From positions 89,941,691 through 90,005,690 of the forward strand of contig NC_090387.1 of the NCBI RefSeq assembly GCF_036365525.1: 64,000 nucleotides of DNA. Direction: 5' to 3'. Both the position numbers and the translations under genes were made by a program. Numbering within the stretch: the stretch's first letter is position 1; each line of letters begins with the position of its first letter. Of the stretch, positions 12,287-64,000 are shown in pieces. The notes below the pieces were generated by a model that saw only the letters and a program-made list of their open reading frames with translations, ran no database searches and had not been told where the DNA came from. The stretch comes from Heterodontus francisci (taxonomy: Eukaryota).

Positions 12287-13954
12287 ATATACTTGTTCGC
12301 CAGGGAGTGATATTGTACACTAGTTGGTCAGGGAGTGAGATTGTATACTAGTTTATCAGGGGTGAGACTGTATACTAGTTCACCTGGGAGTGAGATTGTA
12401 TTTTATTCGCCAGGGGGTGAGATTGTATACAGGTTCACCAAGGAGTGAAATTGTATACTAGTTCACCAGAGGGTGAATTTGTATGCTAGTTCACCAGGGA
12501 ATTATATTGCATATTGTTGACCTGGGAGTGAGATTGTATACTAGTTGACCGGAGGTGAGATTGTATACTAATTCACCAGGGTTGAGATTGTATCCTTGTC
12601 ACCAGGGGATGAGATTGTATACTAGTTCAGCAAGGCAGTGACTGAATCCCAGTTCACCAGTGAGTGAATTTATATCCCTGTTCAACAGGGATTGAGAATG
12701 TATCCTAATTCACCAGGGGGTGAGGCTGTATATTATTCACCAGGGGGTGAGATTGTAGACAAGTTCGCCAGGAAATGAGATTGTGTACTGCTCAGCAGGG
12801 GTTGAGATTGTATATTAGTTCACCAGGGAGTGAGATTCTATATTATTCAATCAGGGGGTGAGATTGTCTACAAATTTGCCAGGAAATGAGATGAATATTA
12901 TTCGCCAGGGAGTGAGATTCCATACTAGTAGTCCAGTGGGTGAGATTGTGCACAGGTTCACAAGAGGCGAGATTGTATACATGCTCAGCAAGGCAGAGAT
13001 TGAATTTTAGTTCACCAGGGAGTGAGATTATATCCTTGTTCACCAGGGGGTGAGATGGTTGATTAGTTCACCAGGGGGTGAGATTGTATACTAGTTCGCC
13101 AGTGATTAAGATTGTATCCTAGTTCACCAGAGAGTGAGATTGCATACTAGTTCATCAGTGATCGAGATTATATCCTAGTTCATCTGGGGGCGAGATCGTA
13201 TACTACTTAGTCAGGGACTGAGATTGTATACTAGTTCACCAGGGGGTGAGATTGAATACTAGTTTACCAGGGGCGAGATTGTATACAAGTACACCAGGTA
13301 GTGAGGTTGTATCCTAGTTCACCAGAGAGTGAAATTGTGTATTATTCACCAGGGGGTGAGATTGTATACAATTTCGCCAGGCAATGAGATTGTATATTGT
13401 ACCACTGGTGTGAGATTGTATACTAGTTCATCAAGGAGTGAGATTGCATATTATTGAATCAGGGGCTGAGATTGTATACAAGTTAGCCAGGGAATGAGAT
13501 GTATATTATTTGCCAGGGAGTGATATTCTATACTAGTAGTCCAGTGGGTGAGATTGTACACAAGTTCACAAGAGGTGAGATTGTATACATGTTCATCAAT
13601 GCAGAGATTTTAGTTCACCAGGGAGTGAGATTATATCCTTGTTCACCAGGGGGTGAGATTATATCCTTGTTCACCAGGGAGTGAGACTGTATACTAGCTT
13701 GCCAGGCAGTTAGACTGTATCCTAGTTTGCCTGGGGATGGGATTGTATACTACTTAGTCAGGGATTGAGATTGTTCACGAGTTCGCCAGGGGCGAGGTTG
13801 CATACTGTTCAGCAGGGGTTGAGAATGTATATAAGTTCGCCAGGAAATAAAATTGTATATTGGTCAGCAGGGGGTCAGATTGTCTCCAAGATCACCAGAG
13901 AGTGAGATTGTACACATGTTCACCAAGTGTGAGATTGTGTACTAGTTCACCAGT
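12287..13954. repeat. 28-bp satellite array, block 2
   Basis: Same monomer as block 1. Confidence 0.96.
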
Positions 13955-14339
13955 GGGCTGCTGGATAAGTAAAACCCTAAATATTTGGGCCGTTTAAAAT
14001 AACTTGCCTTTCATTGCAGCAGCTTTTTCGGGAGCTGAGCGTGCGTGTGAGTGAGCATCTGGGAAGGTCAGTTTAAAGTAAACTTAATTTCTTTTTGTTT
14101 TCGGCGGAGACCAGGGGGCTGCTGGGTAAGTAAAACACTATATATTTGGGCCGTTTCTGTACCTGAGACACTACACCTGTAGTGTCTCCCACCCGCCCTC
14201 CTCCTCTAACCAAAAAAAAAAGGACTCGGTGGTGTGTAGATAAGGTAAGGCTTTTTCTATTTCCCTTTTTTTATCGTGTGATTGGTTAAAAACTTTTCGT
14301 TCCTTTTGCATTTAACTAAGTTTAAGCTTAAGATTAAAA

Positions 14340-18050: not shown

Positions 18051-18280
18051 AAGTTCTTTACGCAGATGGTGGTGGGTGCATGGAACGCATTGCCAGCGGG
18101 CACGATAGCGTCTTTTAAGATGTATCTAGACAGACACATGAATGGGCAGGAAGTAAAGAGATACAGACCCTTTCGAAAATAGGCGACAGGTTTAGATAGA
18201 GGATTTGGATCGGCGTCGGCTTGGAGGGCCGAAGGGCCTGTTCCTGTGCTGTAATTTTCTTTGTTCTTTGTTCTTTGTTC

Positions 18281-19460
18281 ACCAGGGAGTGAGATTGTCT
18301 CCTTGTTCACCAGGGAGTGAGATTGTATACGAGTTCACCAGGAGTAAGATTGGATACATGTTTGCCAGGCAGTGAGATTGTATTCTTGTTCAGAAGATGG
18401 TGAGATTGTATACTAGTTCTCCAGGGGGTGAGATTGCATACCAATGCGCCAGGGAGTGAGATTGTATTCTAGTTCGTCAGGGCGTGAGATTGTATGTTAG
18501 TTTATCAGGGAGTGAGATTGTATACTAGTTCGGCAGTGGGTGAGATTGCATACAAGTTTGCCAGGGGGTGAGATTGTATGTTAGTTTATCAGGGAGTGAG
18601 ATTGTATACTAGTTCGCCTGGGAGTGCGAGTGTATTCTAGTTCTTCAGCGAGTGAGAGTGTATACTCGTTTGCCGGAGAGTGAGTGTATACTAGTTCGTC
18701 AGGAGTGAGATCGTATCATATTTCGCCCAGGGGCAAGATTGTACACCAGTTAGCGAGGGATTGATATTGTATATTTTTCACTAGGGAGTGAGATTGTATA
18801 CTAGTTCACCAGAGGGTGAGATTGTATACTAGTTCACCAGGGAGTGAGATTGCATACTAGTTCACCAGGTGTGAAATTGTATCGCAGTTCACCAGGGAAT
18901 AAGATTGTATACTCGGTCACCAGAGGGTGAGAGTGTATACTAATTTGCCAGGGAATGAGATTGTATCTTGTTCACCAGGGGGTCAGATTGTATACAGGTT
19001 TGCCAGGGAGTGAGATTGTATACTACTACACCAGGGAGTGAGATTGCATACTAGTTCACCAGGTGTAAAATGGTATAGTTCACCATATTGTGATGAGATT
19101 GTATACATGTTCTGCAAGGCAGAGATTGAATCTTAGTTCAACAGGGAGTGTGATTGTATCCTTGTTCACCAGGGGCTGAGATGGTATATTAGTTCGCCAG
19201 GGATTGAGATTGTATTCTAGTTCACCAGGGGCTGAGATGGTATATCATTCATGAGGGGGTGAGATTGTATATATGTTCGTCAGGAACTGAATTTGTATAC
19301 TAGTACACCTGGGAGATTGCATACTGGTTCACCAGGGGTGTGATTGTATCATAGTTCACCAGGGAATGAGGCTGCATATTAGTTCGCCAGGGACTGAAAC
19401 TGTATTCTGGTTTACCAGGGGTGTGAATGTATACTGGTTTTCACCAGGGAGTGAGATTGT
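18281..19460. repeat. 28-bp satellite array, block 3 (paralogous to ~5610-7828)
   Basis: Same monomer; shares rare variants with 5610-6030 and 7550-7828. Confidence 0.95.
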
Positions 19461-21300: not shown

Positions 21301-22098
21301 GTATACCTGTTTGCTAGGGAGTGATATTGTATGCTAGTTCGTCAGGGAGTGAGACTGTATACTAGTTTATCAGGGGTGAGACTGTATACTAGTTCACCTG
21401 GGAGTGAGATTGTATTTTATTCACCAGGGCGTGAGATTGTATACAGGTTCGCCAAGGAGTGAGATTGCATACTAGTTCACCAGAGGGTGAGTTCGTATCC
21501 TAGTTCGCCAGGGAATTATATTGTATATTGTTGACCTGGGAGTGAGATTGTATACTAGTTCACCAGGGAATGAGTTAGTATACTAATGCACCAGGGAGTG
21601 AGATTGTATACTAGTTGACCGGGGGTGAGTTTGTATACTAGTTCTCCAGGGAATGAGATTGTACACCAGTTCGCCAGGAAGTGAGATTGTATATTAGTTG
21701 ACCAGGGGTGAGATGGTATACTAGTTTATCAGGGAATGAGATTATACACTCGTTCATCATTGGTGAGATTGTATACTAATGTATCAGGGAATGAGGTTGT
21801 ACACTCGTTCATCATGGGTGAGATTGTATCTTAGTTCAGCAGGGAGTGAGACTACATACTAGTTTTCCATGGAGTGAGTTTGTATTCTGGTTCACCAGGG
21901 GGTGAGATTGCTTCCTAGTTCACCAGGGAGTGAGCTTGTACACTCGGAGGTGAGATTCTATAATAGTTTACCAACAAGTGAGATAGTTTACTAGTTTGCC
22001 AGGGTTTGAGACTGTATACATGTTTGCCAAGGGTGAGATTGTATACTGCTTACCAGGGGTGAGATTACCTGCTAGTTTACCAGGGGTGAGATTGTATA

Positions 22099-22210
22099 CT
22101 GGCAGCATCTGTGGAAAGAGAAGCAGACCTGCCAGACCTGCTGAGTGGTTCCAGCATTTCTTGTTTTTATTACAGATTTCCAGCATCCGCAGTATTTTGC
22201 TTTTATTTTT
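22099..22210. mobile_element. Penelope-like short repeat fragment (inverted plus direct pLTR pieces)
   Basis: ctggcagcatctgtgga... followed by ...ccagacctgctgagt...cagatttccagcatccgcagtattttgctttt; same family as 43661-43795. Confidence 0.7.
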
Positions 22211-23456
22211 GTGAGTTTGTATACTAGTTCGCCAGGGAGTGAGATTGCATACTAATTCACCAAGAGGTAAGATTGTATATAAATTCGCCGAGGTGTCAGA
22301 TTGTTTACTACTTTACCAGGGGTGAGATTGTACACCAGTATACCAGAGAGTGAGATGGTCTACTAGTTTTCCAGGGATGATGTTGTACACTAGTTTACCA
22401 GTGGTGAGATTGACCACTAGTTTACCAGGGGTGAGATTGTATACAAGTTCGCCAGGGGGTGAGATTGTATACTAGTTCACCAGAGGTTCAGATTGCATAC
22501 TAGTTTGCCTGGGGTGCGATTGTATACCAATTGTCCGGAGGTGATATTGTATACTAGTTCACCGGGGGTGAGATTGTTTACTAGTTCACCGGGGGTGAGA
22601 TTGTATACTAGTTGACCAGGGGTGAGATTGTATACTAGTTGACCAGGGGTGAGATTGTTTACTAGTTCACCAGGGGTGAGATTCTATATATGTTCTGCAA
22701 GGCAGAGATTGAATCTTAGTTCAACAGGGAGTGTGATTGTATCCTTGTTCACCAGGGGCTGAGATGGTATTCCAGTTCACCAGGAATTGAGATTGTATTC
22801 TAGTTTGCCAGGGAGTGAGATTGTATATTATTCACCAGTGGGGTGCGATTGTATACAAATGCGCCAGGGAGTGAGATTGTATATTGTTCAGCAGGGAGTG
22901 AGATGGTATATAATTCATGAGGGGATGAGATTGTATACATGTTCGCCAGGCAATGAGGTTATATATTGTTCACCAGAGGGTGAGTTTGTATACTGGTTCG
23001 CCAGGGAGGGAGATTGTATACAAGATAACCAGGGGATGAGATTGTCTACTAGTTTTTCAGTGGATGAGTTTTTTACTAATTCACCAGGGAGTCAGACTTC
23101 ATACTAGCTCTCCAGGGATTGAGATTGTATACTAGTTCACCGGGGGTCAGATTGTATATTGTTCAGCAAGGGTGAGATTGTATACAAGTTCGCCTGGGAA
23201 TACGATGCACATTGTTCGCCAAGGAGTGGGATTGAATACTAGTTTGTCAGGGGGTGAGATTGTATACATGTTCACCAAGGGTCAGATTGTGTCCTAATTC
23301 ACCAGGAAGTGAGATCGTATACTAGTTTGCTGGGCAGTTTGATTGCATCTTAGTTCGCCTGGGGGTGAGTTTGTATACTAGTACACCTAGGAGTGAGATT
23401 GTTTTGTAGTTCACCAGGGAATGAGACTGCATATTAGTTCACCAGGGAGTGATATT

Positions 23457-23734
23457 AGAGTCATACAGCATTGAAACAATCCCTTCAGCACACCGAGTCT
23501 GTGTTGACCATCAACCACCCATTTATACTAATCCTACATTAATCCCATATTCCCTACCTACACTAAGGGCAATTTACAATGGGCAATTTACCTATTAACC
23601 TGCAAGTCTTTGGGAGGAAACCGGAAAACCCACGCAGACGCAGGGAGAACTTGCAAACTCCACTCAGGCAGTACCCAGAACTGAACCTGGGTCGCTGGAG
23701 TTGTGAGGCTGCGGTGCTAACCACTGTGCCGCCC
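23457..23734 (-). mobile_element. HE1-type V-SINE (tRNA-derived head, V domain, CR1-derived tail)
   Basis: Minus strand begins GGGCGGCACAGTGGTTAGCACCGC...GGTTC; V-domain GGAGTTTGCAAGTTCTCCC; paralogue at 35671-36017. Confidence 0.85.
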
Positions 23735-24649
23735 TAATTGTATACAAGTTTGCCAGGGAGTGCATTTGTATACCAGTTCACCAGTGGGTCAGTTTGTATA
23801 CTAGTTCGCCAGGGAGTGAGATTGTATATTATTCACCAGGGAGTGAGATTCTATATTATTCACCAGGGAGTGAGATTGTATACTGTTCACCAGGGATGAG
23901 ATCGTATATCGCTCGTCAAGGAGTGAGATTGTATACTCGTTCGCCAAGGTTTGAGAGTGCATACTAGTTTGTCAGGCAGTGAGATTGTATACTAGTTCAT
24001 CAAGGAATGACATTGTGTACTAATTTGCCAGAGAGTGAGATTGTATCCTAGTTCGCCACAGAGTGAGATTGTATCCTAGTTCACCAGGGAGTGAGACTGC
24101 ATATTAGTTCATCAGGGAGCGAGTTAGTATACGAATGCACCAGGGATTGAGATTGTATATTAGTTGACCAGGGGGTGAGTTTGTATACCAGTTCTCCAGG
24201 GAATGAGATTGTACACCAGTTTGCCAGGGAGCGTGATTGTATACTAGTTCACCTAGGGGTGAGACTGCCTACTAGTTCACTAGGGAGTGAGATTGTATAC
24301 CAGTTCGCCAGGGGATTAGATTGTATACTAGTTCACCTGGGGTTGAAACTGCATACTTAGTTCACTCGGGGTGAGATTGTATACTTGTTCACCAGTGGGT
24401 GAATTTTTTACTAGTTCACCAGGGAGTGAGATTGCATACTAGTGCACCAGGGATTGAGATTGTATACGAGTTCACCAGGGGGTGAGATTTTATACTAGTT
24501 CACCAGGAGTGAGATTGCATACCAGTTCACCAGGGGTGAGATTGCATACCAGTTCACCAGGAGTGAGATTGCATACCAGTTCACCAGGGGTGAGATTGCA
24601 GACGAATTCACCAGGGGATGAGATTGTGTACTAGGTCATCAGAGACTAG

Positions 24650-24850
24650 ACTTCAGGAAAGCATCTGATAAAATCCCTCATAACAGACTTTTGGCTAAAG
24701 TTGAAGCTCATGGAATTGAAGGTAATATATTGACCTGGTTCTGAAATTGACTGTGCAGCAGGAAACAGCTTCGGGATCATGTGCAGATACTCTAATTGGC
24801 AGTATGGGGCTAGTGGTATCCCACAAGTACGTGTGTTGGGGCTTCAATTA
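24650..24850 (+). mobile_element. Old CR1 RT fragment
   Basis: Encodes DFRKASDKIPH..LLAKVEAHGIEG and a GIPQ..VLG-like segment. Confidence 0.7.
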
Positions 24851-25646
24851 TTTACCAGGGAGTTAGATTCTATATTATTCACCAGGGAGTGAGATTGTAT
24901 ACTCGTTCACCAGGGAGTGAGATTGTATATTGTTCACCAGGGATAGGCACAAACATGTTGCACCACTAACATGTGACAAAATTATTGACACTGCCACAGA
25001 CATGGAGGCAATTAATCTGCATATAAAGTGTGTAACCTGACAATATTGAAAATGTGGGTCCCTTTAATTAAACAGGACTCATTTCAGTGTTAATAGGGAG
25101 CAGGTGATGCTCATTATGGTTTTGCATTTCAGGGCTGGGTTTTTGCCCAGTTTTGGGGGGAATTACCTCTGGACAGAGAGTTAGTTCAGAAGGGAAGAGT
25201 GGGAACTGATATTTGGACTGAACTATGAATTGTCAATAAAACAGTTATGGATCAGAGACTGTCATTGGCTTCCTCATGTTGGTGAATGGATATCTGCCTG
25301 TTTAACATAGCCAACCTAATGCCATCAAAGCACAGTCCGATTTAAAACAATTTCTCCCTGTAAGTAAAGGAGCTAAGCATACAAACATCAATGGACACCA
25401 GCACTATTGTATTAGCTAGCTAGCAAGCAAAACAGTATGCAATGCCAATGTGAATTACCTTTATTGACAGAATAGAGCTCGCTAAACCATGTGTTTACAT
25501 TTCATTAGCATGTAGCCAACCAGGACCGAGTTCGATACCCCGATGATCCCAATTCTTTCTAATTAATTTCACTCCTGGTAATTTTAAATGCTTGCTCCAA
25601 GCTTTTCAACATGTGTTTGAAAATAACCCAGCCGCCAGGCTTGGAT

Positions 25647-38658: not shown

Positions 38659-40236
38659 TCATACAAGTTGTCTCAGATAGTAAAGCATAAAAATTCCTAC
38701 TACTAGCACTACTGCTTGGGTCAATACCACGAGCGGGAACAAGGTTCGGAGCCATGGGCGTTTCCCTACATTATACATAGTATTCCATCATGATTGTTCT
38801 CCTAACAGTTCTATTTTCTTCCTTCTTTGGTTGTTTTCTTGCATCATTTTACCAAGTGATTCTGTGAGATGGTAGCCCTCTCGATTCTTGATCATAGACT
38901 CAGAGATATGGAGGTATGGGATGTCCAACGCTCACAATGGCTTTGTGGGCTTCAGCCTGCATGGCGGAATAGATTGTCAGTTCGGTGACATTATGTATTG
39001 ACATGGGGAGCAGGACGTTGCCTCCTATTATGGTCATCTGGATGGGCTTGAAACAAAAGGTGGGTTCCAATAATAGGATACTCCTCCCCTCCATACCTCA
39101 TTGTTTGGGCATTAGTGGTGACACAATACATCTCCATCTGAAGGTAGACATATTTTGCACTACTTTCACCCCACCTTTGGACGTTCTTATTGCATACTAG
39201 TAGTTCCTAGTCTAGGGTGAACCCACACACAGGTCAACCTGGGTTCCGAACGTCACAGCGGCATAAGTAAACTTCTTCCCTTTCTGAGCAGCACTCGATG
39301 TTCAGGCTGTCCCAGGTTAGATTGCATTTGATCAAAATTGGTGGAGAGGTTTCATACGAGGGGTGGACATCTTAGTCTATCATCCCAATTAACTCTACTC
39401 TAAATACCTTCCATTCATCCTCTCTTTGTCGGCGGGGTAACCTTAACACGACCAGGACTATCGGTTTTATTGTCATAGTCCTTAATTCCTTTCACTGAAT
39501 AGGACAATCCATGCTGCCTGGCCACTTTGGTGTGGTCATGGTCTGTGAACCAACCCCTGATCATACTGTCATTCACAAGGATGGAATCTGTTTATTCCCA
39601 ATATCATCAAGGCCAGCCATTATCTGATCTAACATCATAGCTTCCATAAATTGAGCAGCCAATAGCCTTCGATATATTCCCTTCAGTTTCTCCTTTACCC
39701 TTTGTTACTGCATTGATGTGATCCTGGATTTGTGAGAATATCTTCACCTCATTCCTAACTGCCAGCAGGTTCTGAGATAATTTGTGAATTATATTTTTGC
39801 CTTCATTCATTCCTGCTAAAATCCCCTTTAATTGTCTCCTTCTGGCCTCATTGTGTTCCCACATATCCTCAATGTCTATTTTATTCCAGGCAGCTAACTC
39901 GCAGTGGCCGCGATATCGACCCATTCCCAAAACCCTCTCTCCCTTCTGCCGCTCCCATTTGCTCCCGTAGAATTCACCTCCATTGACAAATAAAACAGTA
40001 AGTGCTGGAAATACGCAGGTCTGGCAGCGTCTGTGGAGAGAGAAACAGAGTTAACATTTCAGAAATGTAATACACCGATTACAGTAAACTATCATGTTGC
40101 AGCTCGCTCACAGGTTCACATTCTCTTGATTCCCTTGGTCATCATGTGCAGTTACGCGTTGCAGAGTTGAATCTTATACCAACGTAGTCCAAATGAGTAA
40201 TAGTCCAACATCCATCCAGCAGAGAGGCGATCTCAT
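38659..40236 (-). pseudogene. env: env / class I fusion glycoprotein (F-like), with multiple frameshifts and stops
   Basis: Signal-like MRSPLCWMDVGLLLIWTTLV; RRER site (39936-39947) then GFWEWVDIAATAS-LAAWNKIDIE; heptad-like helix; IVLVVLRLP...WKVFRVELIG; Cys-rich ECC..YLCRC..VCG..YCVTT; C-terminal hydrophobic anchor. Confidence 0.75.
39989..40062 (-). mobile_element. Penelope-like short repeat fragment inserted in env
   Basis: gctggaaatacgcaggtctggcagcgtctgtggagagagaaacagagttaacatttcag is the reverse complement of the 43684-43765 family sequence. Confidence 0.72.
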
Positions 40237-40319
40237 TGTATACCTTGATTGTCCGGTTATTCCAGGCCTTCCTGTAACAGATCAATGAAGCATTTATTCT
40301 TTCACAGTTTTCAGCCGAT

Positions 40320-40790
40320 TAATATGATACTACTTTGTGTACTTTGAACTTCTTTACCCCAAGAAATGAATTAAGTAGACTGCGGGACACAAGCGGTCCA
40401 CAATTGGGTATCGCCCCTTCCATTTGCGTTGAACGACATGCTCTTTTTTGCCATAATACAGGACCATAACCATGCCTCCTACTTGGTACTGAAATGATCG
40501 CACCTTCTTGCCGCAGTATTTCTTGATCTGCTTCTTTGACTTCCCCAGAATTTGTGCTACAAACTGATTCATCTGATTTGTGTACACGATTACCTTTTCC
40601 AACCACTTAGAACTACATGGCCCTTGTAGCAGAGGGCTCATGCATGGCAAGGTCAGGTTCTCATCAGTCTCCTGGTCATAGTCTGATATGGTGATACTCC
40701 CGTTGCTTTGTGTGCGGTCGAGTGGATCACCATTAGACACGTTGGAGGCATACTCGCCAATGAGTGGGGTGGTCGGCACATAGTTTCTTC
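40320..40790 (-). pseudogene. pol: Integrase C-terminal region with GPY/F module
   Basis: ASPYQTMTRRLMRT, KKYCGKKVRSFQYQVGGMVM, KWKGRYPIVDRLCPAVYLI. Confidence 0.8.
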
Positions 40791-40999
40791 AACTTCATTC
40801 TCAGGGTCTTATTACCCCTCTCCACCACTCCCAAAGACTGGGAGGGGGGGGGGGGGGGTGTTGGTGGTGTTGGGAGATGTGTAACTTATGTTTTTCCCTA
40901 TTATTTCTTGATTTTCTATGATTGTCGTGATCATCAGGGAAATCATTTGGCCTAACATTTGCTCATCCCCGGATAGTTTTGTGTTGGGCTGGAGCAGAA

Positions 41000-43400
41000 G
41001 TGTGGCAGTGGCTCCTTCATGGAAGAGCAACAGTCCCGAGCCATGTGTCCCGCTTTTCCGCAGTTGTAACGGGATAACTCTTGTACCTTCCCGGAGTACT
41101 TTTTCGTCCTTCCACAGCGGCTACGGTTTTCTTTAGATGCGCAGCCATAGGGGTATCCACTCTCAGGGAGTCTCTTACTGCCTCATATGCGATTTGGGCA
41201 GTCTCAATTATATTAGCCTACTGTTGCTCTGTGTGGGTGGTTGTACCCATAGCCTTCTTCACCAGTGGTTGTGGTGGGCTTTTTTTATTATTCATTTCAT
41301 GGGATGTGGGTGTCGCTGAAAAGAACAACATTGGTTGCCCATCCCTAATTGCCCTTGGAAAGATATTGGTGGGCCGCCTTCTTGAACAGCTGCAGTTCAT
41401 CTGGTGCAGGTACACCCACAGTGCAGTTAGGGTGGGAGTTTCAGAATCTTGATCCAGCGACAGTGAAGGAACGATGATATATTTCCAAGTCAGAATGGTG
41501 TGTGGCTTGGAAGGGAACTTGCAGGTGGTGGTGTTCCCATGCGTCTGCTGCCTTTGTCCTTCTGGGTGGAAGAGGTGGCGGGTTTGGAAGGTGCTGTCCA
41601 AAGAGGTGTGGTGAGTTGCTGAAGTGTATCTTGTATATGGTACACACTGCTGCCACTGTGCCTCAGTGGTGGAGGGAGTGAATGTTTAAGGTGACGGATG
41701 GATTGCTGATCAAGCGGGCAGCTTCGTCTTGGATGGTGTTGAGCTTCCAGGAGCCACACCCATCCAGGCAAGTGGAGAGTCTTCCATCACACTCCTGACT
41801 TGTGCCTTGTCGATGATGGACTGGGGAGTCAAGAGGTGAGTTATTCACCTAAAAATTCCCAGTAGCTGACCTGCTGTTTTAGCCACAGTATTTATGTGGC
41901 TGCTCCAGTTCAGTTTCTGGTCAATAGTGCCCCCCCAGGGTGTTGATAATGGGAAATTCAGTGATGGTAATGTCGTTGAATACCAAGGGGAGATGGTTTG
42001 ATTCTCTCTTGTTGGACATCATCAGTGCCTGGCACTTGTGTGGCACGGATGTTACTTGCCACTTCTCCGCCCAAGCTTGAATATTGATAGAATGGTGCAA
42101 AAAACATAGTTCTAAATTGTACATGTTCCCTCCCATATGCAGCAGGAGCCCTTTTCTGGCATTGTTCGTACAGGTCATACAATCGATTGGCAAACACTTT
42201 TAGTTTCTCATCCTTCTCCTGTAGAGTCTGACCACATAATTCTATGAGGTTCTGATTCAGAATATCTAAATGATCAAGGACAGCCTGAATATCATCCTTG
42301 GAGGTCGCGCCTTCTTCACAAACATCTGCATCATAATTGGCCTTAATTTTGGTCACCAAAGACCTAAAAAGGATGCTTTTAAGGTCTCCCTCCTCTAATT
42401 CGGGGTGAATTCGTCTGAAGATAGCCCACCGCTTGTTCACAGCGATCGCATTTTATCCGTCCCATATGGCCCTATTTCCTGAGCCAAGTACTCTGCATCA
42501 GAGTGGGTCAAGGGCCTTGACTCCGTTATGGTCTTCTCATTATTACAGCTTTCACCTCCTCATTTCACAAATAATGCCACTTCTGAAAGTCAATTGTCCC
42601 ATTTTTCTGAGTCTCAAACCTCTCACTTTCTCACCTCAACTCTCCCCAATCTACCTCTCCACTATCCTCACAAGAGGCCAGGATGGTGCCTCCCGCTGTT
42701 ACTGCAGACACAATTGCCTGTTGCTTTCCCAATTTTCCCGGTAGCTTGTAAATTCTTGTAAATTTTGAGGCGGCACTGTAAGTAATCCACAACCTATTGA
42801 GGTTTGCTCATCACTTCTCTGAGCGCCCTACTAGCATCTTCCAATTCTCTCTTAAATATTAATTCTCTTCCTTTTGATGTTTTAACTGGTTTTTAGTTTC
42901 CGGAGCATCAATCCAACAGCACCAGCATTCAGGTTATAGACATGTTGCTGCTACTGCAACAAAGCAGTAATCTGCTGGTTACACAGTTCCAAATCTCAAA
43001 CCCACTGGTTCAGTCTCTCTATCTCTTGATCCTATTGGTTAACGGACTCTTGGATCTGTTGATTCAACCGCTCTAATTCCTGATATTTTTGGTTAATAGT
43101 TTAATCATCTCTCTGTGCGCAAACGTTCTTGACTTTTAACTTTTTCTAACCTATCCTACCTTGAATAAACTCTATGACATCCCTATATGGCTTCCGATCG
43201 CCCGCATTCAGGCATCCAGGCATTAACTCCTGTATCTTATTGATAGGTAACGTATCTAACGTTTCCTCGAGCACCTGTTTGATGTCTTTGAATGACATAA
43301 TGTACTATATCTATTCTCTCATAAGTGCCTTTGGTCACTGGAGAGAGGGTCTATTAGGGTTCTCACGTTCAAATAAGATTCCCATCCTGAGACCCGTATC
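41000..43400 (-). pseudogene. gag: gag remnant (capsid-like), split by a LINE insertion; boundaries approximate
   Basis: ORF 41958-42440 has a major-homology-region-like QEKDEKLKVFANRLYDLY; it lies between the PBS and pol. Confidence 0.6.
41280..42085 (-). mobile_element. 3' fragment of a CR1/L2-group LINE (same family as 53060-55840)
   Basis: NIQAWAEKWQV, KLNTIQDEAARLI; 3' end ACATCCCATGAAATGAATAATAAAAAAA on the minus strand. Confidence 0.85.
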
Positions 43401-48539: not shown

Positions 48540-48960
48540 GACATCTGCAGGTGGTAGCCTGGCGGGAGGCCTAATGGCCACATGGGTGCAGTCTATGACC
48601 ATTACAACCTATGGTACTCCGGCAGTGGTGCCAAAACCAATCGGCCTCTGGACCTGGCTGTGAGAGACCGTCCTGAAGTGGACATACTCACTGGCCCTCC
48701 GGTGCAGGGCATCAGTGACCTCCCTGATGCAGCGATGCATTGCTAACTGCATGATCCCACAAAGGTCTCTGGTGGGCCTCTGAAAAGCTGCATAGGCATC
48801 AAGCCTAAGAACCGCTGCCACAATGAGGACCACAGGCATGGCATGTCCACCGAAGCCCATGGGCTGCAGGTCATCCTTGTCACCACTCTCTCTATATGCA
48901 CAATCGCTTCTGACACTGGTGATCTGACATCTGATAGCATGTCATGTGGGGCCTATAGAT
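48540..48960 (-). pseudogene. Harbinger (HARBI1-like) DDE transposase fragment
   Basis: FQRPTRDLCGIMQLAMHRCIREVTDAL...GFGTTAGVP..VIDCTHVAIRPP. Confidence 0.85.
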
Positions 48961-56030: not shown

Positions 56031-56085
56031 ATGTTAGCGAGTGTTGTACTTCAGTGCCTCTCTGTTTTGGGGATCATATTCACAG
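56031..56085 (+). CDS. IgSF receptor exon 1: signal peptide MLASVVLQCLSVLGIIFT (phase 1)
   Basis: Hydrophobic leader ending ACAG|GTAACA; in-frame upstream ATGs (from 55917) are possible alternative starts. Confidence 0.8.
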
Positions 56086-56246
56086 GTAACAGTTCCCTCT
56101 ATACCTTACTTTCCCATTAAATCTGGTAGTTATTTAGCTTTCCTTTGATACAACATGTTTCATTTTCCTTTGTACATATTCCCTGATTCCCTTATTCTCG
56201 CTCTTTTCCTTCTGTAATACAATCTAATTATCATCTTTTCCGATAG

Positions 56247-56567
56247 CTTGCGGCGAAACTTCAGTCAAAGTGAATCAGTACCCTGAGAGTATGAGCATAA
56301 ACCTGGGAAGAAATGTTTCCTTTCGCTGCACGCTTCCCATGTTTCAAGACGGCCCACCTGTGAATGTCTACTGGTGGAAGGAGGGTAATAATCAATATCT
56401 AATCACAGGACAGGATGACAGAAAATTAATTAGCGTTAAGACTGGATTCAGCGGCGTTCTTTGGATAATCAATGTGAGTGTACAAGACGCAGGAGCATAC
56501 TATTGCACTGTCACTCATCGAGGCAAAATAGTTGGAAACGGAACGGGATCCAATTTAGTTGTAACGG
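56247..56567 (+). CDS. IgSF receptor exon 2: V-set domain with germline-joined J-like G strand
   Basis: ttttccgatag| ... |gtaagt, phase 1-1; C..W..DAGAYYC..GNGTGSNLVV. Confidence 0.93.
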
Positions 56568-57576
56568 GTAAGTATAAAAACAACGAATGAGATCCCTGTA
56601 ACTGTAATATTTCACCATTCGGAACATTTCTTGACTGTGCTTCGAAGGATTCACATCGCAAATTAAATTCCATTGTTTTAGCATGCATACATTCAAATTG
56701 CACCTGTGACGGCTGCAATTATTTTTTGATATGCTTCAGAATATTTCAGCAATATTGATCAAGCCAAGCATTATCTCTTAGTTGCTTGATTCCCAAAATA
56801 CACAGTAAACGGCATACAGAAAACTATTGAAGTTAAAATTGCAGTATCATTTACGGAGGTGTATATCTCGACAGTGTTAGATACTAGCGCGGATCTGCCG
56901 CTCTGAGCACAGATATTGCCCTATTTGAGATTTATTTTGTCTCCGTTACGAGCGACTGACTGTTTCTATCTGGATTCAGATTTCCGTAGCTCTAATTTAA
57001 TAATCTATATGTCAGGATCTTTGAAAGGGCATATTACTGACAGTTAAATTTCACATTCTGTAGCTTGATCCTCCCGTCCCATTTTTCTTCATGATTTTCA
57101 CCTGTAAATAAGGTATCATACTGGACCTTGGCACCAGTGTCCCTCTAGTTTGGTAAATTATATTTTCTCATCAGTTCTTATGTTCAACAGAGTTCGCAGC
57201 GGTACCGCGAAACAGGGGAGCAACGCAAATTACATCCCGTTCAATTTTCTTTCCCATTTGAATCGAAAATTGGGAGAGCTGTAAAACGGACGACCCACTC
57301 GCTATCATCCGTTTTTTTTTGCCCGGCGGTAACATTGCAATTACCGCCGAAATAATGGCGACACTCGTGAAAATCTGTTTGCGATGCAAATACTGACAGC
57401 GCAAAGTGTCACATCTCCTCACCGCACCCTCCACCCCCAGCCCCGACTCCCCTCCGCCTACCGACCCACCCGCGACCTCCTCCAGTGTAAAGTTCGAAAT
57501 GGGCTGAAACAAAACCTCCGGTTGTTCACCTTGATTGATGTCCCATTAACGTTATTTTCCTTCATTTGTTTTTTAG

Positions 57577-57885
57577 CTCCGCCAACTCCACTGAAAATTA
57601 AATCTCAGCAATCTGAGGATTCATCTGTTTCTCTGACTGTTGTGTGCGTGACATCTCCCTTTTATCCAGAGAGTATCAGCTTCACTTGGTATAAGGATGG
57701 CAACAAAACTACAACAGGGATAAATAACGTTATTGAACCTAATACCGACGGACTATATGAAGCCTCCAGCCGCTTGCAAGAGACGCAGTTTGTCCCGCCC
57801 GGAACTGTTTATACCTGCCTGGTCTCTCACAGTACCCTCCAAATATCAGCCATTGCCACTTACACTGTCACCTATCCCAGCACAG
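57577..57885 (+). CDS. IgSF receptor exon 3: C1-set domain
   Basis: ttttttag| ... |gtgaga, phase 1-1; VCVTSPFYPESISFTWYKDG, GLYEASSRL, YTCLVSHSTL. Confidence 0.93.
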
Positions 57886-57904
57886 GTGAGATTTCAGATA
57901 AAAT

Positions 57905-58900
57905 CGGAGAATCGTACAGCATCGAAAGAGGTCATTTGGCCCAGCGTGTCTGTACGGCGTCTTTGAAAGAGCTGTCCAGTTTAGTCCCTATAACTCTGCA
58001 AATTAGACCCCTTCAAGCAACATGTCCAATTGCCTTTTGAAAATTCTTGTATAAATTGCTTCCAACAACCTTTCAGTTAATGTATTCGGCATCTCAACAA
58101 CCCCCGTGAGAAAAGAATTTGCCTCAAAACCCCTCCAGTCTTTTTGCCAATAGTTTTAAACCTATGATTGCCGGCTATCCACCCATTCCTTCAGAAGAAT
58201 GTTGCTTCCTCCTTCATTCATTAAAACCCTTCATAATTTTGAATATTTCTCTTCGATGTCCCTTTAATTTTCTCTGTTCCAATGAGAGCAATCCTCGCTT
58301 CGCCAATATCTCCACGTAGCTGAAGGTCCTCCTCTCTGTTAAAGCCGGTAAATCTCGTCCTTGACATTCTTTTAAAATGCGGTGCCCAGCATTGTGCACA
58401 ATAATCTAACTGAGAACTAACCAGAGATGTGCAAAATTTAGCATGGCTTCCATGTTTTTGTATCCAATACCTCTATTCGCAAAACTAATTGTCGCACAAG
58501 CTTCCTTAACCCTACTTATTAACTTGCTCTGCCACCTTTAAAGATTTGTAAATATGCACCCCTATCTTCTCCTGATTTAGTATGCCCCTCAAAATAGCAC
58601 CATTTCCATTATACTACCTCTCCATGTTGTTTCACCCAAAGTGCACACTTCAGACTTATCCACATTGAATTGCACTTACCATTCGTCTGCCCATTTCCTC
58701 ACTGTATTTTCTCCTATAGTCTGCTACTACCTTCTCACCATTTACTACGTTACCAATTTTGCATCATTAACAATTTTCAAATTGTGCTCCCTATATCAAG
58801 TCCAGATCATTTACGCATATCAGGTAAAGTATTAGTCCTGATACTGATCCCTGAGGGAATCCCACTGCATATTTCTCTCCTTTCAAAAAATCCACTCTCT
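57905..58900 (-). mobile_element. Decayed CR1 3' portion in intron 3
   Basis: GLLSLEQRKLKG..EIFKIMKGF on the minus strand plus a CR1-type 3' UTR. Confidence 0.75.
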
Positions 58901-59019
58901 GCCACCTATCACTTAGCAAATTGCATACCCAAGGTACCTCGGTGCATCAAATCCAATATGTCATAGCTCAACATTCTTTTGTTTAATAAAACAGCACTGT
59001 TTACTAAATGATTTTAAAA

Positions 59020-59467
59020 ATGCATTTATATAACGATTTTTACGACCACTGGACATCTCAAAATGCTTTACAGCCAATGAAGTACTTCTGAAGTATATTC
59101 ATGGTTGTAATGTAAAAAACGCGATAGCCAATTTGTACACGGCAAGCTCCCACAAACAGCAATGTGATAATGACCAGATAATTTGTTTTGTGATGTTGAT
59201 TGTGGGATAAATATTGGCGAGCACACCAAGGATAACTGCCCTGCTCTTCTTTGAAATAGTACCATGAGCGTTTTTATATCCCCTTGAGAAGGCAGATAGG
59301 GGCTTGATTTAATATCACATCGATAAATCAGCACCTCCAGCAGTGCAGCACTCCCTCAGTACTACATTGGAGTGTCAGCCTTAATTTTGCTGCTCAAGCC
59401 CTAAAGTAGAACTTAAACCCAAACTTTATGACTCAGAGGCAAGAGTGCTACCAATTCATCCATGGCT
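59020..59467 (-). mobile_element. Deu-domain SINE (SacSINE1/AmnSINE1-like)
   Basis: Minus strand tRNA-like head, GAGGGAGTGCTGCACTG..GAGGTGC..ATGGTACTATTTCAAAGAAGAGCAGGG core, and an L2-like tail ending TATATAAATGCA. Confidence 0.8.
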
Positions 59468-59585
59468 GATGTCAACTGCAATAACTGACTGAAAAGATTT
59501 CGAATTCTCTATCTTTCAGGGTATTGTCATATTGAATTGAACAGCATACAGGTTCGGATTAATTTTTTTAATTTACATCTTTTAG

Positions 59586-59696
59586 GTGGAGAAAACAACC
59601 ATTACTTGCTGATTGCTGCATCTGCAGGGGGCGTGGTGGTATTATTGGTGATAGGTCTCATTATTGCCAAGCGATGTGTGGCAAAGAAAAACAATG
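59586..59696 (+). CDS. IgSF receptor exon 4: transmembrane (GGENNHYLLIAASAGGVVVLLVIGLIIAKRCVAKKNN)
   Basis: cttttag| ... |gtaag, phase 1-1; ~22 uncharged residues then basic stop-transfer residues. Missed by the ORF track. Confidence 0.88.
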
Positions 59697-59882
59697 GTAA
59701 GAAATAATTCAGTTTTCTTTTACTAAAGTTAACACAGCTTTCAAAGCGACATTAGTTAGCCTGTCCCACAGGAACACAGGTGATTTCTGAACACAAACGT
59801 TTTACTGGGATTTAAAATATATGGGACCCTACACAGGCACTCCAGGGTACCAGTGTAGGGGTGCATTCAAATTTCTGAAGTG

Positions 59883-60544
59883 GAGTAGAATTTTCGAAGG
59901 TCTTCAGTCACTGATAGAGCTTCGGGGTGGATTTCTCTGAGCCCCCTAGTGACTGGAACTGAGGCGGTGGCCATAAGATATCGAAGGAAGTCAGCGGATG
60001 GACTGCCCTGCACCTTCCGTCGCCATGTGTTTGTTCTGGGACACGAAAGGCCATCCTACCCAGAGGCTAATTGGGAAGATCCCAATTCAACAAGGTGACT
60101 CCCTGCAGTCTTGGGGCGGGGCTCCTCTGTGGGCGAAGTGTGGTCCACAGAGGGCCCCCAGTGGCAAAGGCCACCATGAACAGCCCCTCTCATCCTCAAT
60201 GCCCTACGTCCTTCCTCCCCCTCGGCAGGGCCTGCCGGACTAGTCCTGCTGACCCCCGCCACTTTTCCGGGCGTGTGGGGCTCCAGCGAACGTCCACTTG
60301 TAGTACCAGCAATGCTCATGGCTCCCAGTGGCCACTAATCTGCTAGCCGTTTGATTGGCTGATAGTTCTTTGGGGTGGGATCCCCGTTCTGAAAAGGACC
60401 GAAACCACAGCCCAGGCAGTTACTTGCCCGACTGTCATTAAATAGAGACGGAGTTGGGGGTGGGGGGTTCTCCAAAGGTCGAAGGCGAGGTTGCCCTCTT
60501 AGGCCCAGCGTCAGGACCCCTGCTCTTTCCACGAAATTCAGCGC
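59883..60544. mobile_element. Harbinger-type MITE (degenerate TIRs)
   Basis: gagtagaatttt ... gaaattcagcgc; GC-rich body resembling the other MITEs. Confidence 0.55.
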
Positions 60545-60842
60545 TCAGACTTAGTGGGTGCTTTTTTGAAAAATCTCCTTTCATTGCCTGTGATTTAACG
60601 CCATTCCGGTAATGAACATAAAAACTTATGTTGTATCCATGCGATTTTTCAATCAGACTCTCACTACTTCACTGGAATTTGAACGATCTTAATCCTATTG
60701 TCAAATGTGATCATAAACCAAGCAATTCTGAATAACAAATGTGATATCTAGGTCATATTATAATTTACATTGAATCTACTAGAAGTGTCTTGATAAGCCG
60801 AGTAAATATTAAGGTAAAGTCTTAAACTTCATTCATTACCAG

Positions 60843-60886
60843 GAGTGAAGAACGACGGTGAAAGATCCAGCTCTCCCGAACAGCAG
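60843..60886 (+). CDS. IgSF receptor exon 5: first cytoplasmic exon (GVKNDGERSSSPEQQ), phase 1-0; gene continues beyond the window
   Basis: ttcattaccag| ... cag|gtaggt; open in the correct phase; a purine-rich island in AT-rich intron. Confidence 0.7.
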
Positions 60887-61039
60887 GTAGGTTTTGATAA
60901 TTCGTGCTAATGTATTTCAAATGTAAATATAAATGTAACAAAGTTGTACTCTATTTAATGCAATAATCTGCGCGTTTAATTCCCTACTGCACAAATTCAG
61001 ACAAAATAGCACAGGCTGAATTCAGTGCTTATGCAACAG

Positions 61040-64000
61040 ACAATCTTGTATAAGCGCATAACTAGTAAAAGGCTGGTAAAAAGGACGAGTGGGGCCGATT
61101 AGGGCCCTAAAAGGGAATTTAAGCATGGAGGCAGAGGGCATCACTGAGGCACAAAATGTGTACTTTGCCTCAGTCTTTACCAAGGAAGAAGATGCTGCCA
61201 AAGTCATAGGGAAAGGGAGGTAGTTGAGACACTGGATGGGCTAAAATGGGCAAAGAAGAAGTATTAGATCAATTGGCTGTACTTAAAGTTGATAAGTCAC
61301 CAGGTCTGGATGAGATGCATCCAATGATATGTAAGGGTAGAAATTGCAGATGCATTGGCTATAATCTTCTAATCCTCCTTAGATATAGGTGTGGTTCCAG
61401 GGGACTGGAGAATAGGAAATAGAACAAAGAACAAAGAAAATTACAGCACTGGCAATGCGTTCCAGGCACCCACCACCCTCTGCGTAAAGAACTTTCCACG
61501 CACATCCCCCCTAACCTTTTCCCCTCTCACTTTGAACTCGTGGCCCCTAGTATTTAAATCCCCCACTCTGGGAAAAAACTTCTTGCTATCCACCCTGTCT
61601 ATACCTCTCATGATTTTGTACACCTCAATCAGATCCCCCCTCAACCTCCGTCTTTCTAATGAAAATAATCCTAATCTACTCAACCTCTCTTCATAGCTAG
61701 CGCCCTCCATACCAGGCAACATCCTGGTGAACCTTCTCTGCACCCTCTCCAAAGCATCTACATCCTTTTGGTAATGTGGCGACCAGAACTGCACGCAGTA
61801 TTCCAAATGTGGCCGAACCAAAGTCCTATACAACTGTAACATGACCTGCCAACTCTTGTACTCAATACCCCGTCCGATGAAGGAAAGCATGCCGTATGCC
61901 TTCTTGACCACTCTATTGACCTGCGTTGCCACCTTCAGGGAACAATGGACCTGAACACCCAAATCTCTCTGTACATCAAATTTCCCCAGGACTTTTCCAT
62001 TTATTGTATAGTTCACTCTTGAATTGGATCTTCAAAAATGCATCACCTCGCATTTGCCCGGATTGAACTCCATCTGCCATTTCTCTGCCCAACTCTCCAG
62101 TCCATCTATATTCTGCTGTATTCTCTGACAGTCCCCTTCACTATCTGCTACTCCACCAATCTCAGTGTCGTCTGCAAACTTGCTAATCAGACCACCTATA
62201 CTTTCCTCCAAATCATTAATGTATATCACAAACAATAGTGGTCCCAGCACGGATCCCTGTGGAACAGCACTGGTCACATGTCTCCATTTTGAGAAACTCC
62301 TTTCCACTGCTACTCTCTGTCTCCTGTTGCCCAGCCAGTTCTTTATCCATCTAGCTAGTACACCTTGGACGGCATGCGACTTCACTTTCTCCATCAGCCT
62401 GCCATGGGGAACCTTATCAAACGCCTTACTGAAGTCCATGTATATGACATCTACAGCCCTTCCCTCATCAATCAACTTTGTCACTTCCTCAAAGAATTCT
62501 ATTAAGTTGGTAAGACATGACCTTCCCTGCACAACACCATGTTGCCTATCACTGATAAGCCCATGTTCTTCCAAATGGGAATAGATCCTATCCCTCAGTA
62601 TCTTCTCCAGCAGTTTCCCTACTGGTCTATAATTACCTGGATTATCCCTGCTACCCTTCTTAAACAAGGGGACAACATTAGCAATTCTCCAGTCCTCCGG
62701 GACCTCACCCGTGTTTAAGGATGCTGCAAAGATATCTGTTAAGGCCCCAGCTATTTCCTCTCTCGTTTCCCTCAGTAACCTGGGATAGATCCCATCTGGA
62801 CCTGGGGACTTGTTCACCTTAATGCCTTTTAGAATACCCAACACTTCCTCCCTCCTTATGCCGACTTGACCTAGAGTAATCAAACATCTGTCCCTAACCT
62901 CAACATCCGTCATGTCCCTCTCCTCGGTGAATACTGATGCAAAGTACTCGTTTAGAATCTCACCCATTTTCTCTGACTCCACGCATAACTTTCCTCCTTT
63001 GTCCTTGAGTGGGCCAATCCTTTCTCTAGTTACCCTCTTGCTCCTTATATATGAATAAAAGGCTTTGGTATTTTCCTTAACCCTGTTTGCGAAAGATATT
63101 TCATGACCCCTTTTAGTCCTCTTAATTCCTCGTTTCAGATTGGTCCTACATTCCCGATATTCTTTCAAAGCTTCGTCTTTCTTCAGCCGCCTAGACCTTA
63201 TGTATGCTTCCTTTTTCCTCTTAGCTAGTCTCACAATTTGATCTGTCATCCATGGTTCCCTAATCTTGCCATTTCTATACCTCATTTTCACAGGAACATG
63301 TCTCTCCTGCACGCTAATCAACCTCTCTTTAAAAGCCTCCCACATATCAAATGTGGATTTACCTTCAAACAGCTGCTCCCAATCTACATTCCCCAGCTCC
63401 TGCCGAATTTTGGTAGAGTTGGCCTTCCCCCAATTTAGCACTCTTCCTTTAGGACCACTCTCGTCTTTGTCCAAATGTTACACTATTGTTCAAAAATGTA
63501 TGTCAGGACAAGTCCAGCAACTGCAGGCCAGTCAGTTTAACTTCGGCAGCAGGAATGCTTTTAGAAACGATGATTCAGGACGAAATTAATAGTGACTTAG
63601 TCAAGTGTGGTGTAAGTAAGGAAAGTCAGCACGGATTTGTTAAGGGCAAATCGTGTATCACTAACTTGGTTGAGGTTTTTTTTTGATGAGGTAACAGGCA
63701 AGGTTGATGAGGGTAATGCAACTGACGTGCTGTACATGGACTTCCAAAAGGCCTTTGATATTGTGCCATATAACAAAGTTAGATCCATGGAATAAACGGG
63801 ACAGTAGCAACATGGATACGAAAATAGCTGAGTGACAGAAAGCAGAGAACAGCTGTGAACAGTTTCTTTTGGACTGGAGAAAGACTGGATTCCCAAGGGT
63901 TGGTGTTGGGACCTCTGCTTTTCTTGACACATATTACAGAGCTAGACTTGGTTGTACAAGGAGCAATTTCAAACTTTTCAGTGACATAAAACTTGGAATG
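61040..64000 (+). mobile_element. Old CR1 (pieces 61040-61420 and 63473-64000) split by a younger CR1
   Basis: VPGDWRI | NVTLLF..RPVSLTS..QHGFVKGKSC continuity across the insertion. Confidence 0.82.
61421..63472 (-). mobile_element. Young 5'-truncated CR1, same family as 13955-18280, TSD AAAT
   Basis: 480-aa and 191-aa ORFs nearly identical to 16066-18100; (TTCTTTG)n tail; aaat at 61417-61420 and 63473-63476. Confidence 0.95.

Follow-up and report, generated by a model that had tools for sequence, protein, structure and literature searches.

The window analysed here, 64,000 nucleotides of Heterodontus francisci DNA from NC_090387.1, carries a five-exon gene that is open, spliceable and encoded in the germline. 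Its product is probably a type I inhibitory immunoreceptor of the form leader-VJ-C1-TM-ITIM/ITSM and a member of a chondrichthyan paired-receptor family, the function being assigned by analogy. At least 43 V-C1 genes, all on a single chromosome, make up that family, which has both ITIM-tailed members and short-tailed members with an Arg in the TM. The receptor is probably a shark counterpart of receptors like SIRP-alpha, the 'don't-eat-me' receptor of mammals, rather than an antibody ancestor. Work on how antigen receptors arose is actively looking for single-exon VJ genes (PMC12227049).

Structure of the gene

Table 1. Features of the receptor gene. Positions are those of the window, except for the last exon.
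Feature	Position	Strand	Support
Leader exon; signal peptide MLASVVLQCLSVLGIIFT; phase-1 donor	56031..56085	+	Agrees with P0004
V exon: short VJ in one exon; J-like strand N-G-T-G-S-N-L-V-V; sequon at J-Phe position; no RSS	56247..56567	+	Pfam, RSS scan, model
C1-set domain exon	57577..57885	+	Pfam
Stalk, uncharged TM (AASAGG) and basic juxtamembrane exon; interchain Cys absent	59586..59696	+	Contig pieces, 0 differences, two runs
First cytoplasmic exon; terminates in phase 0	60843..60886	+	
Intron 5, extends past window end	60887..64000	+	
CR1-type LINE remnant within intron 5, antisense	61441..63477	-	Label read from RT-like ORFs
Last exon: ITIM LTYAAV, ITSM-like TEYAQL, VIYTEP, then stop	G000:C17:90010764-90010931 (L031:5764-5931), ~5 kb past window end	+	

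All exon ends were canonical (AG/GT), the five exons followed the phases 1-1-1-1-0 and no stop codons were present in the V, C1, TM or cytoplasmic exons, which bore out the intact leader-V-C1-TM-cytoplasmic gene proposed in the initial annotation. The TM was also as first described, uncharged and with a small-residue motif. The spliced product was 100% identical to the annotated shark protein P0004 (335 aa), which also includes the tail. An extra exon tried at 59521-59550 introduced a stop and was dropped. Pfam scored the V exon at 36.9 bits as V-set (cut-off 26), with Ig_3 higher at 43.6 bits, and the C1 exon, which contained FYP, WYKDG and YTCLVSH, at 52.9 bits as C1-set. The ectodomain has one C1 domain, with two Cys, and is not of the V-C1-C1 type. 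Duplicated C1 or V-C1 units were seen in a few gene models from other species.

The gene had been described as a non-rearranging VJ-C1 receptor, and this description held. The GNGTGSNLVV strand was inside the V exon, and a scan that allowed at most one heptamer mismatch and at most two nonamer mismatches found one RSS in the whole window (33032) and none within the gene. No RSS was found at any of the 27 paralogue V exons that could be parsed (30 examined). In control scans an RSS adjoined two of three rearranging V, but no site adjoined a germline-joined light chain.

The further description of the product as shaped like a TCR chain was not supported. Of 25 family rows, 24 had a V core (Trp to the second Cys) of 38-43 residues, compared to 48-61 residues in all but one of the 31 reference V domains, a shortfall of approximately 10 residues. 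The J-strand Phe/Trp was kept in none of the 88 parsed family J strands, and an N-x-S/T glycosylation sequon was found at its position in 62 of them. TCR chains have a stalk Cys and charged TM residues; both the stalk Cys and a TCR-type charged TM were absent from this gene.

Spliced transcripts of the family were seen. An 822-nt contig joined the leader, V, C1 and TM exons at the predicted junctions, but its source was a close paralogue and not this gene. The TM exon of this gene was itself matched with no differences in two runs, and at least two differences separated it from the five paralogues tested. The runs behind these contigs came from one sample in one study and are presumed to be RNA.

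The cytoplasmic tail

The initial annotation had expected an inhibitory receptor with an ITIM exon downstream; such a tail exon lies beyond the window (Table 1), and its stop is followed by AATAAA. The Tyr residues of the ITIM and the ITSM-like motif are 23 apart, and TEYAQL has Leu at the position where a strict ITSM has Val/Ile. SHP binding through an ITIM-ITSM pair with a spacing of approximately 23 is a generic module. SHP-binding sites are reported to be conserved from sharks onward (PMC12151841).

This gene retains only the second of the family's two ITIM/ITSM modules: a deletion of approximately 590 bp took out one whole tyrosine exon, which was present in all three checkable paralogues, and preserved the frame. 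In the four-Tyr family tail the Tyr spacing is typically 23-14-23, compared to 24-17-26 in bat and bird SIRP-alpha. An HMM of the family tail scored 51.0 and 45.6 bits on these SIRP-alpha tails; none of 500 motif-preserving shuffles matched these scores, and doubled generic ITIM-ITSM controls, drawn from only two non-SIRP tails, scored up to 36.2 bits. All four Tyr of the family and SIRP-alpha tails were placed in register by hhalign.

A receptor family on one chromosome

The suggestion of a shark multigene family was substantiated by the paralogue count. All 109 candidates were scored, which gave 46 V matches to the family; 46 C1 exons were found on C17, and the 43 same-strand V-C1 pairs and all 25 tail-exon matches were on this same chromosome. 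Of the 40 loci examined, 36 had a recognisable TM exon. Four loci (L122, L132, L144 and L145) had a short tail and an Arg...D/N-H TM; approximately eight further TM exons contained Arg, with a role that is uncertain on our reading. Both TM/tail classes were also found among proteins of other species, and named family members were present in chimaera, sharks and rays. Stops or a frameshift were seen in some family copies. To our knowledge, most of the inhibitory and activating receptors used by NK-like and myeloid cells of sharks have yet to be assigned. The present family, which has been retained from chimaera to rays and includes both signalling classes, offers a concrete and testable candidate. 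A literature search, for which most subscription papers were outside scope, gave no description of the family, and one supplement file of PMC3964593 contained no hits for SIRP, NKp30, ITIM or V-C1.

C17 carries FOXF1-FOXC2-FOXL1-like, MAF-like and C/EBP genes and an IRX trio plus MMP, with an MT-MMP 1.6 Mb from one family cluster, and C16 carries NSFL1C-, FKBP- and syntaphilin-type genes; except for the three Fox genes, these names are presumptive and derive from Pfam family and position. The family locus lies on the human-16q-like chromosome, the 2R sister of the chromosome of SIRP. The SIRP-flanking markers, which we take to be NSFL1C/FKBP1A/SNPH, mapped to C16 and the family to C17, so that the linkage of SIRP is not shared. 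The family was also off the MHC chromosome (C29) and the Ig/TCR chromosome (C34). Synteny with the MHC or its paralogons, which the initial annotation had listed as a check, was unsupported: PBX-type matches were on C8, C29, C32 and C43, the sole C17 match had two stops, and in a first look none of 41 proteasome matches was on C17. A search for the CD47 family matched nowhere and was therefore uninformative, and the transglutaminase and MARVEL markers likewise gave no information on the locus.

Relationship to known receptors

Trees were built from hand-picked family rows (25 V, 21 C1 and 12 V+C1) and did not include the TCR C domain, tapasin, NITR or PRARP; rows P0082, P0188 and P0159 were dropped by pattern from the V tree, and P0091 and P0164 from the C1 tree. 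The family and SIRP were separate clades in both the V tree and the C1 tree, and the V domain fell outside the Ig/TCR clade in the former. In the V+C1 tree B7H6-like proteins and a coelacanth gene grouped with the family (94/86), the B7H6-like rows adjoining the family with weak support (90/66). The C1 tree placed the coelacanth gene, XP_005987622 (P0201/P0137; automatic name SIRP-like), as the sister of the family (89/82), its 39 best matches in the shark genome were family C1 exons, and it is the closest bony-fish relative found. It shares the V-C1-TM-ITIM/ITSM layout, but has a longer V with an NCR3-like best match and one tail module. No one-to-one orthology to any named gene was found.

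The family resembles SIRP in its single-exon VJ followed by C1 and its clustered paired receptors, and SIRP-alpha in its four similarly spaced Tyr, set in tandem ITIM/ITSM-like modules, although this gene keeps one module. It differs from SIRP in having one C1 rather than two, a shorter V, approximately 43 genes and a place on a 16q-like chromosome, not adjoining NSFL1C/FKBP1A. SIRP-beta has a central Lys in the TM, whereas the putative activating family members carry Arg near its outer end. SIRP was the closest of the receptors initially listed for comparison; the tail matched that of SIRP-alpha, but the ectodomain did not clearly do so.

In shark NCR3/NKp30 the VJ exon likewise does not rearrange and includes a GxG strand, but the NCR3-like exons are MHC-linked and form their own V clade, and no C1 exon was seen in the NCR3-like stretches examined. 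The NITR of ray-finned fish are reported to be clustered VJ receptors with ITIM and Arg-TM forms (bioRxiv 10.1101/2021.06.11.448072); their second domain is I-type with six Cys and a J, whereas that of the family is a two-Cys C1. UrIg, UrIg2 and germline-joined shark light chains share the unsplit VJ exon plus C1, but are secreted or TM-less, have an Ig-like long V and show linkage to either the MHC or the antigen-receptor complex (PMC12227049); UrIg is a secreted VJ with three C1 domains, whereas this gene has one C1 plus a TM. An ITIM+ITSM tail is found in PD-1 and CD28HL3, and a GxG strand in some CD28-family members, but each of these genes exists in one copy, encodes a single V and has a synteny and CDR3 Pro motifs of its own (PMC11599192), in contrast to the V-C1 family; the CDR3 PPP/EIP motif, carried by the CD28 family except PD-1, was absent from alignment A1. 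The V of B7H6/tapasin-like V-C1 molecules lacks the J-type GxG strand, whereas the family has this strand and ITIM tails; even so, the B7H6-like rows stand next to it in the V+C1 tree, with the weak support given above.

Alternative explanations

The shark genes might be true SIRP orthologues that changed chromosome and have one C1 instead of two. The SIRP-alpha type of tail is consistent with this explanation, as are the SIRP clusters at ranks 1 and 4 of the ESM Atlas look-alikes (0.97 and 0.96), the automatic SIRP-like names on many members and the finding that none of 35 matches to a SIRP-like V exon was on C16 (150 of 322 candidates scored). It is nevertheless unlikely, given the V-C1 architecture, the location of the SIRP-flanking markers and a p-AU of 0.045 for family plus SIRP (0.108 with the coelacanth gene added). 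Furthermore, the coelacanth has two distinct genes, one SIRP-like and the other nearer to the shark family, and the best matches of its SIRP V were NCR3-like exons on the MHC chromosome, with none on C17. Slightly less improbable, but still doubtful, is that the family has already been described by another name, whether as PRARP, as amphibian VJC1 or as a subtype of shark NCR3 that lies outside the MHC. The GNGT J strand and the Arg-TM members resemble NKp30, and the V of the coelacanth relative matched an NCR3-like exon best. However, the NCR3-like V exons on C29, a label that we gave from motifs and position, were a separate clade (100/92), the p-AU for family plus NCR3 was 0.03 and the literature search was negative within its scope. 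NKp30 and PRARP are given as VJ genes in the MHC in PMC10751288, whereas the family is on C17.

The special link to the pre-RAG receptor that was originally proposed would make this gene a close, UrIg-like relic of the RAG-invaded VJ-C1 gene, forming a TCR-like dimer. It was suggested by the single VJ exon, the single C1 exon and the lack of RSS, and UrIg2 and Ig chains did lead the PDB sequence searches, as light chains led Foldseek. These matches reflect repeated C1 domains and the generic V-C fold at approximately 25% identity, with no clear leader, since B7-H6, HLA, NCAM and VNAR tie within 1 Z. A clade of the family with Ig/TCR/UrIg was rejected (p-AU 0.004), and the locus is on neither the MHC nor the Ig/TCR chromosome. 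Because of this rejection, the short V, the replaced J Phe and the missing stalk Cys, the reading as a TCR chain and pre-RAG relative is weak; such a relic is very improbable and largely refuted. VJ-C1 architecture is by itself no marker of a pre-RAG relic. Least probable of all is a decaying or non-expressed copy, for which the tyrosine-exon deletion and the disrupted family copies might be cited: the deletion kept the frame, the splice sites, stop and poly(A) signal are all intact, and contigs matching the exons exist.

Proposed function and origin

If the receptor works as SIRP-alpha and PD-1 do, its V domain would bind a ligand on a cell surface, of self or pathogen origin, and would probably do so without forming a V-V pair of the Ig/TCR type. 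Src-family kinases would phosphorylate the two tail Tyr, and these may then recruit the tandem SH2 phosphatases SHP-1/SHP-2, which would damp the activation of myeloid or NK-like cells. Sibling genes with Arg at the outer TM end and short tails may couple to an ITAM adaptor of the FcRgamma/CD3zeta type.

The most likely origin, proposed tentatively, is a sister lineage of SIRP kept on the ohnologous chromosome; against it stand the ectodomain trees, which do not join the family to SIRP, and the p-AU values given above. A broader and, taken as a whole, somewhat less probable reading is of an undescribed chondrichthyan complex in which dozens of VJ-C1 receptors, some inhibitory and some activating, would, with the coelacanth gene, be the 2R sister of SIRP. 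A SIRP-type four-tyrosine receptor, a 'self' checkpoint, would therefore have been present in the jawed-vertebrate ancestor, and the shark expansion would have moved into the role of KIR/Ly49/NITR, where the ligands might be MHC class I or B7H6-like molecules. If true, a SIRP-alpha-type tail in sharks on the sister chromosome of SIRP would take this design back to the gnathostome ancestor; the SIRP family is dated to tetrapods in one 2026 survey (PMC13262535).

Divergence among close paralogues

The five closest V exons showed few synonymous changes compared to this gene (for example, 7 non-synonymous to 0 synonymous, 9 to 0 and 10 to 1; these are small numbers from pairs that are not independent). 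Across nine close paralogues the C1 omega was likewise near 1 and deeper pairs gave a dN/dS of 0.2-0.5, again from small numbers and non-independent pairs.

Gene structure and transcription

The five exons proposed in the initial annotation were real, with splice phases of 1-1-1-1-0 from leader to cytoplasmic exon. Pfam assigned the first domain as V-set at 36.9 bits (Ig_3, 43.6; I-set, 31.0) and the second as C1-set at 52.9 bits. A database protein of 335 aa, labelled 'immunoglobulin lambda-1 light chain-like [Heterodontus francisci]', was identical to the spliced gene, and its last 55 residues were encoded by one exon 5 kb past the window. Since this exon contained LTYAAV and TEYAQL, followed by VIYTEP, a stop and AATAAA, the prediction of an ITIM tail downstream was correct. 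A middle tyrosine exon, present in all three paralogues where it was checkable, had been lost by a deletion of ~590 bp that left the frame intact. The reported absence of an RSS from the V exon also held: in a strict scan, which detected RSS beside two of three rearranging V controls, the window's only site was 23 kb upstream of the gene, and of 30 paralogue V exons examined, the 27 that could be parsed had none. The gene is a real, intact inhibitory member of a large chondrichthyan family of paired VJ-C1 receptors.

The expression data comprised three runs from one sample, taken as RNA by guess. In these runs the exons were covered and most repeat-free intron bins were empty. An 822-nt contig spanned leader, V, C1 and TM with the predicted junctions; with 25 differing letters and an insertion of 3 nt, it must have come from a close paralogue. 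TM-exon pieces of the gene itself showed no differences in two runs, and this exon differed from those of five paralogues tested by 2 to 28 bases. The zero-difference pieces lend modest support to transcription of the gene itself, which is probably expressed.

Features of the gene, its damaged relatives, other receptor-like loci and window repeats (C, shark chromosome or contig; L, genome stretch; P, protein)
Feature	Location	Strand	Details
Leader exon	window 56031-56085	+	AG/GT ends
V exon	window 56247-56567	+	AG/GT ends
C1 exon	window 57577-57885	+	AG/GT ends
TM exon	window 59586-59696	+	AG/GT ends
Cytoplasmic exon	window 60843-60886	+	AG/GT ends
Damaged family copy	G000:C17:90291698-90292007		C1 exon split over two frames
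Damaged family copies	G000:C17:76150334 and 76460427		V exon with stop
B7H6-like V and C1 exons, then CARD-domain ORF	L053:3-356, 3242-3838, 8993-9469; L054:4347-4781; G000:C17:44.03-44.05 Mb	-	same strand
Second receptor type, VJ-C1(-C1)-TM-ITIM/ITSM	P0188/P0139 (ray); L110, G000:C10:72.6-72.8 Mb		FGxG J strand
Two NCR3-like VJ clusters	L153, L154, L055, L056, L097, L098; G000:C29 14.8-15.4 and 31.0-32.0 Mb		single-exon
Several tandem VJ-like domains	L101, L163, L164; G000:C46:14.89-14.97 Mb		single-exon; one with FGNG
Germline-joined V exons	L073, L084; G000:C13:120.3-120.4 Mb		end VWGDISGNGTQ; Ig-like in V tree
Clusters of germline-joined light-chain-like VJ exons	L057, L155, L156, L158, L160; G000:C23:54.6-55.9 Mb		FGxG
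28-bp satellite arrays	window 2-7828, 12288-13957, 18277-19460, 21316-24943		strong G skew; broken by CR1-type LINE copies
Short ORFs like LTR-retroelement and Harbinger-type transposase remnants	window 39607-42452, 48609-48941	-	labels are the analyst's reading

Size and composition of the family

Searches of the 6.0-Gb shark genome placed the family on C17, the chromosome of the window (G000:C17:89941691-90005690). The V exon gave 46 matches, every one on this chromosome (all 109 candidates scored), and the C1 exon gave 47 rows there, representing 46 exons because one was split over two frames (150 of 392 candidates scored); unrelated C1 domains ranked below these rows. The exons paired on the same strand, forming 43 V-C1 pairs at 71, 76-77, 88-90 and 92.5 Mb, and the tail exon had 25 matches, on C17 only. 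A family TM exon was recognised in 36 of 40 stretches taken downstream of C1 exons. Most of these were uncharged and contained a GG motif of small residues. At four loci (L122, L132, L144, L145) Arg stood at the outer TM end and the helix was followed by D/N-H; about eight further TM exons had an Arg of ambiguous role. Proteins of the Arg class had short tails. The combination of neutral ITIM-tailed and Arg short-tailed members is that of paired receptors, with inhibitory and activating forms. V-only protein forms (P0111, P0081, P0132) also occurred.

Named members were found in chimaera, several sharks, skates and rays; in species with several, all lay on one contig per species. A profile search gave 50 matches among 8000 scored candidates, 49 of them assigned to chondrichthyans. 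Automatic names were inconsistent (SIRP-like, Ig lambda-like, NCR3LG1-like, tapasin-like). The literature search, whose coverage of relevant papers was incomplete, found no published account, and the family is apparently undescribed as such; there is a small but appreciable chance that a paper outside the search's reach already describes it.

Relationship to antigen receptors, NCR3 and SIRP

The suggestion that the gene was kin to the RAG-invaded receptor was not upheld. Between core Trp and second Cys, 24 of 25 family rows spanned 38-43 residues, whereas 30 of 31 reference V domains spanned 48-61, and the AlphaFold model (mean pLDDT 80.3) had no strand assigned between C and D. Of 108 proteins, counting isoforms, 88 were parsed; none of these had Phe or Trp at the J-Phe position, where 62 carried an N-x-S/T sequon. 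The gene under study had no stalk Cys. Ig/TCR-type V-V pairing is unlikely. The family was a starred clade in the three trees (V, 100/98; C1, 97/95; V+C1, 100/99). AU tests of V+C1 gave p = 0.004 when the family was grouped with Ig/TCR/UrIg, 0.03 for NCR3-like exons, 0.045 for SIRP alone and 0.108 once the coelacanth gene was added to SIRP; since the domains are short and reference labels partly the analyst's own, rejection was firm only for the Ig/TCR/UrIg grouping. MHC class I genes and NCR3-like exons lay on C29 and Ig/TCR V segments chiefly on C34 and C8. On the short V domain, the missing J Phe/Trp and stalk Cys and the AU result, a close relationship between the family and the RAG-invaded gene is unlikely. 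PMC11599192 names CD79, NITR, SIRP, CD8, NKp30 and PRARP among genes with a joined VJ.

A connection to SIRP was suggested by the tail. The search matches included SIRP-alpha of bat and bird, and alignment of the family profile with the bird protein extended along the tail and brought four tyrosines into register; these were spaced typically 23-14-23 in the family compared to 24-17-26 in SIRP-alpha. A tail HMM built from 27 family proteins scored the bat and bird tails at 51.0 and 45.6 bits, scores reached by none of 500 motif-preserving shuffles; in a small control set, artificially doubled ITIM-ITSM modules of two other receptors reached up to 36.2 bits. Single SIRP modules scored 21-29, compared to 13.5 and 16.9 for these same controls. 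Counting against SIRP membership, the family has a single C1, and the two were not joined in trees. By analogy, the gene may work like SIRP-alpha; SIRP identity itself is not claimed.

C17 carried FOXF1-FOXC2-FOXL1 together with a large Maf, two genes of the C/EBP type and five classical cadherins; it also had an IRX trio with an MMP behind it and, at 74.5 Mb, an MT-MMP. These correspond to the human 16q/19q12 set. C16 had NSFL1C-, FKBP- and syntaphilin-type genes plus a sister Maf, C/EBP and MMP; third copies of these three types were on C5. The family's chromosome is therefore the 2R sister of the one with the neighbours of amniote SIRP. Every chromosome has sisters and landing on one by chance is not uncommon, so the location is suggestive of a SIRP connection only when taken together with the tail.

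Of the non-chondrichthyan proteins compared, the coelacanth's P0201 (XP_005987622), a V-C1-TM-ITIM/ITSM protein, had the closest C1 (66 bits). The best 39 of its 54 matches in the shark genome were family C1 exons, and it was sister to the family in the C1 tree (89/82). A separate coelacanth SIRP-like protein was V-C1-C1. In the shark, coelacanth SIRP V matched the NCR3-like genes on C29 best (up to 45% identity), and its 35 matches included none on C16 or C17 (150 of 322 candidates scored). This result counts against SIRP membership of the family and hints that SIRP and NCR3 V domains may be related.

Proposed mechanism

The short V domain would bind a ligand, leading to phosphorylation of the tail; two tail tyrosines would recruit SHP-1/SHP-2 and the cell would be inhibited, with the Arg-TM siblings supplying activation via an ITAM adaptor. 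PD-1, according to PMC12151841, uses ITIM and ITSM jointly, with SHP binding sites conserved from sharks on.

Other receptor-like loci

The C1 domains of the second receptor type (P0188/P0139) grouped with Ig/MHC C1 domains (95/93), whereas those of the C17 family did not. The C46 VJ-like domains were near Ig/TCR V in the V tree and 1.7 Mb from a proteasome-subunit gene; no C1 exon was seen in the stretches examined, and these genes are possibly PRARP-, NITR- or CD8-like. The CARD ORF beside the B7H6-like exons scored 38.6 bits (Pfam CARD); if these are one gene, it would encode an Ig-domain protein with a CARD.
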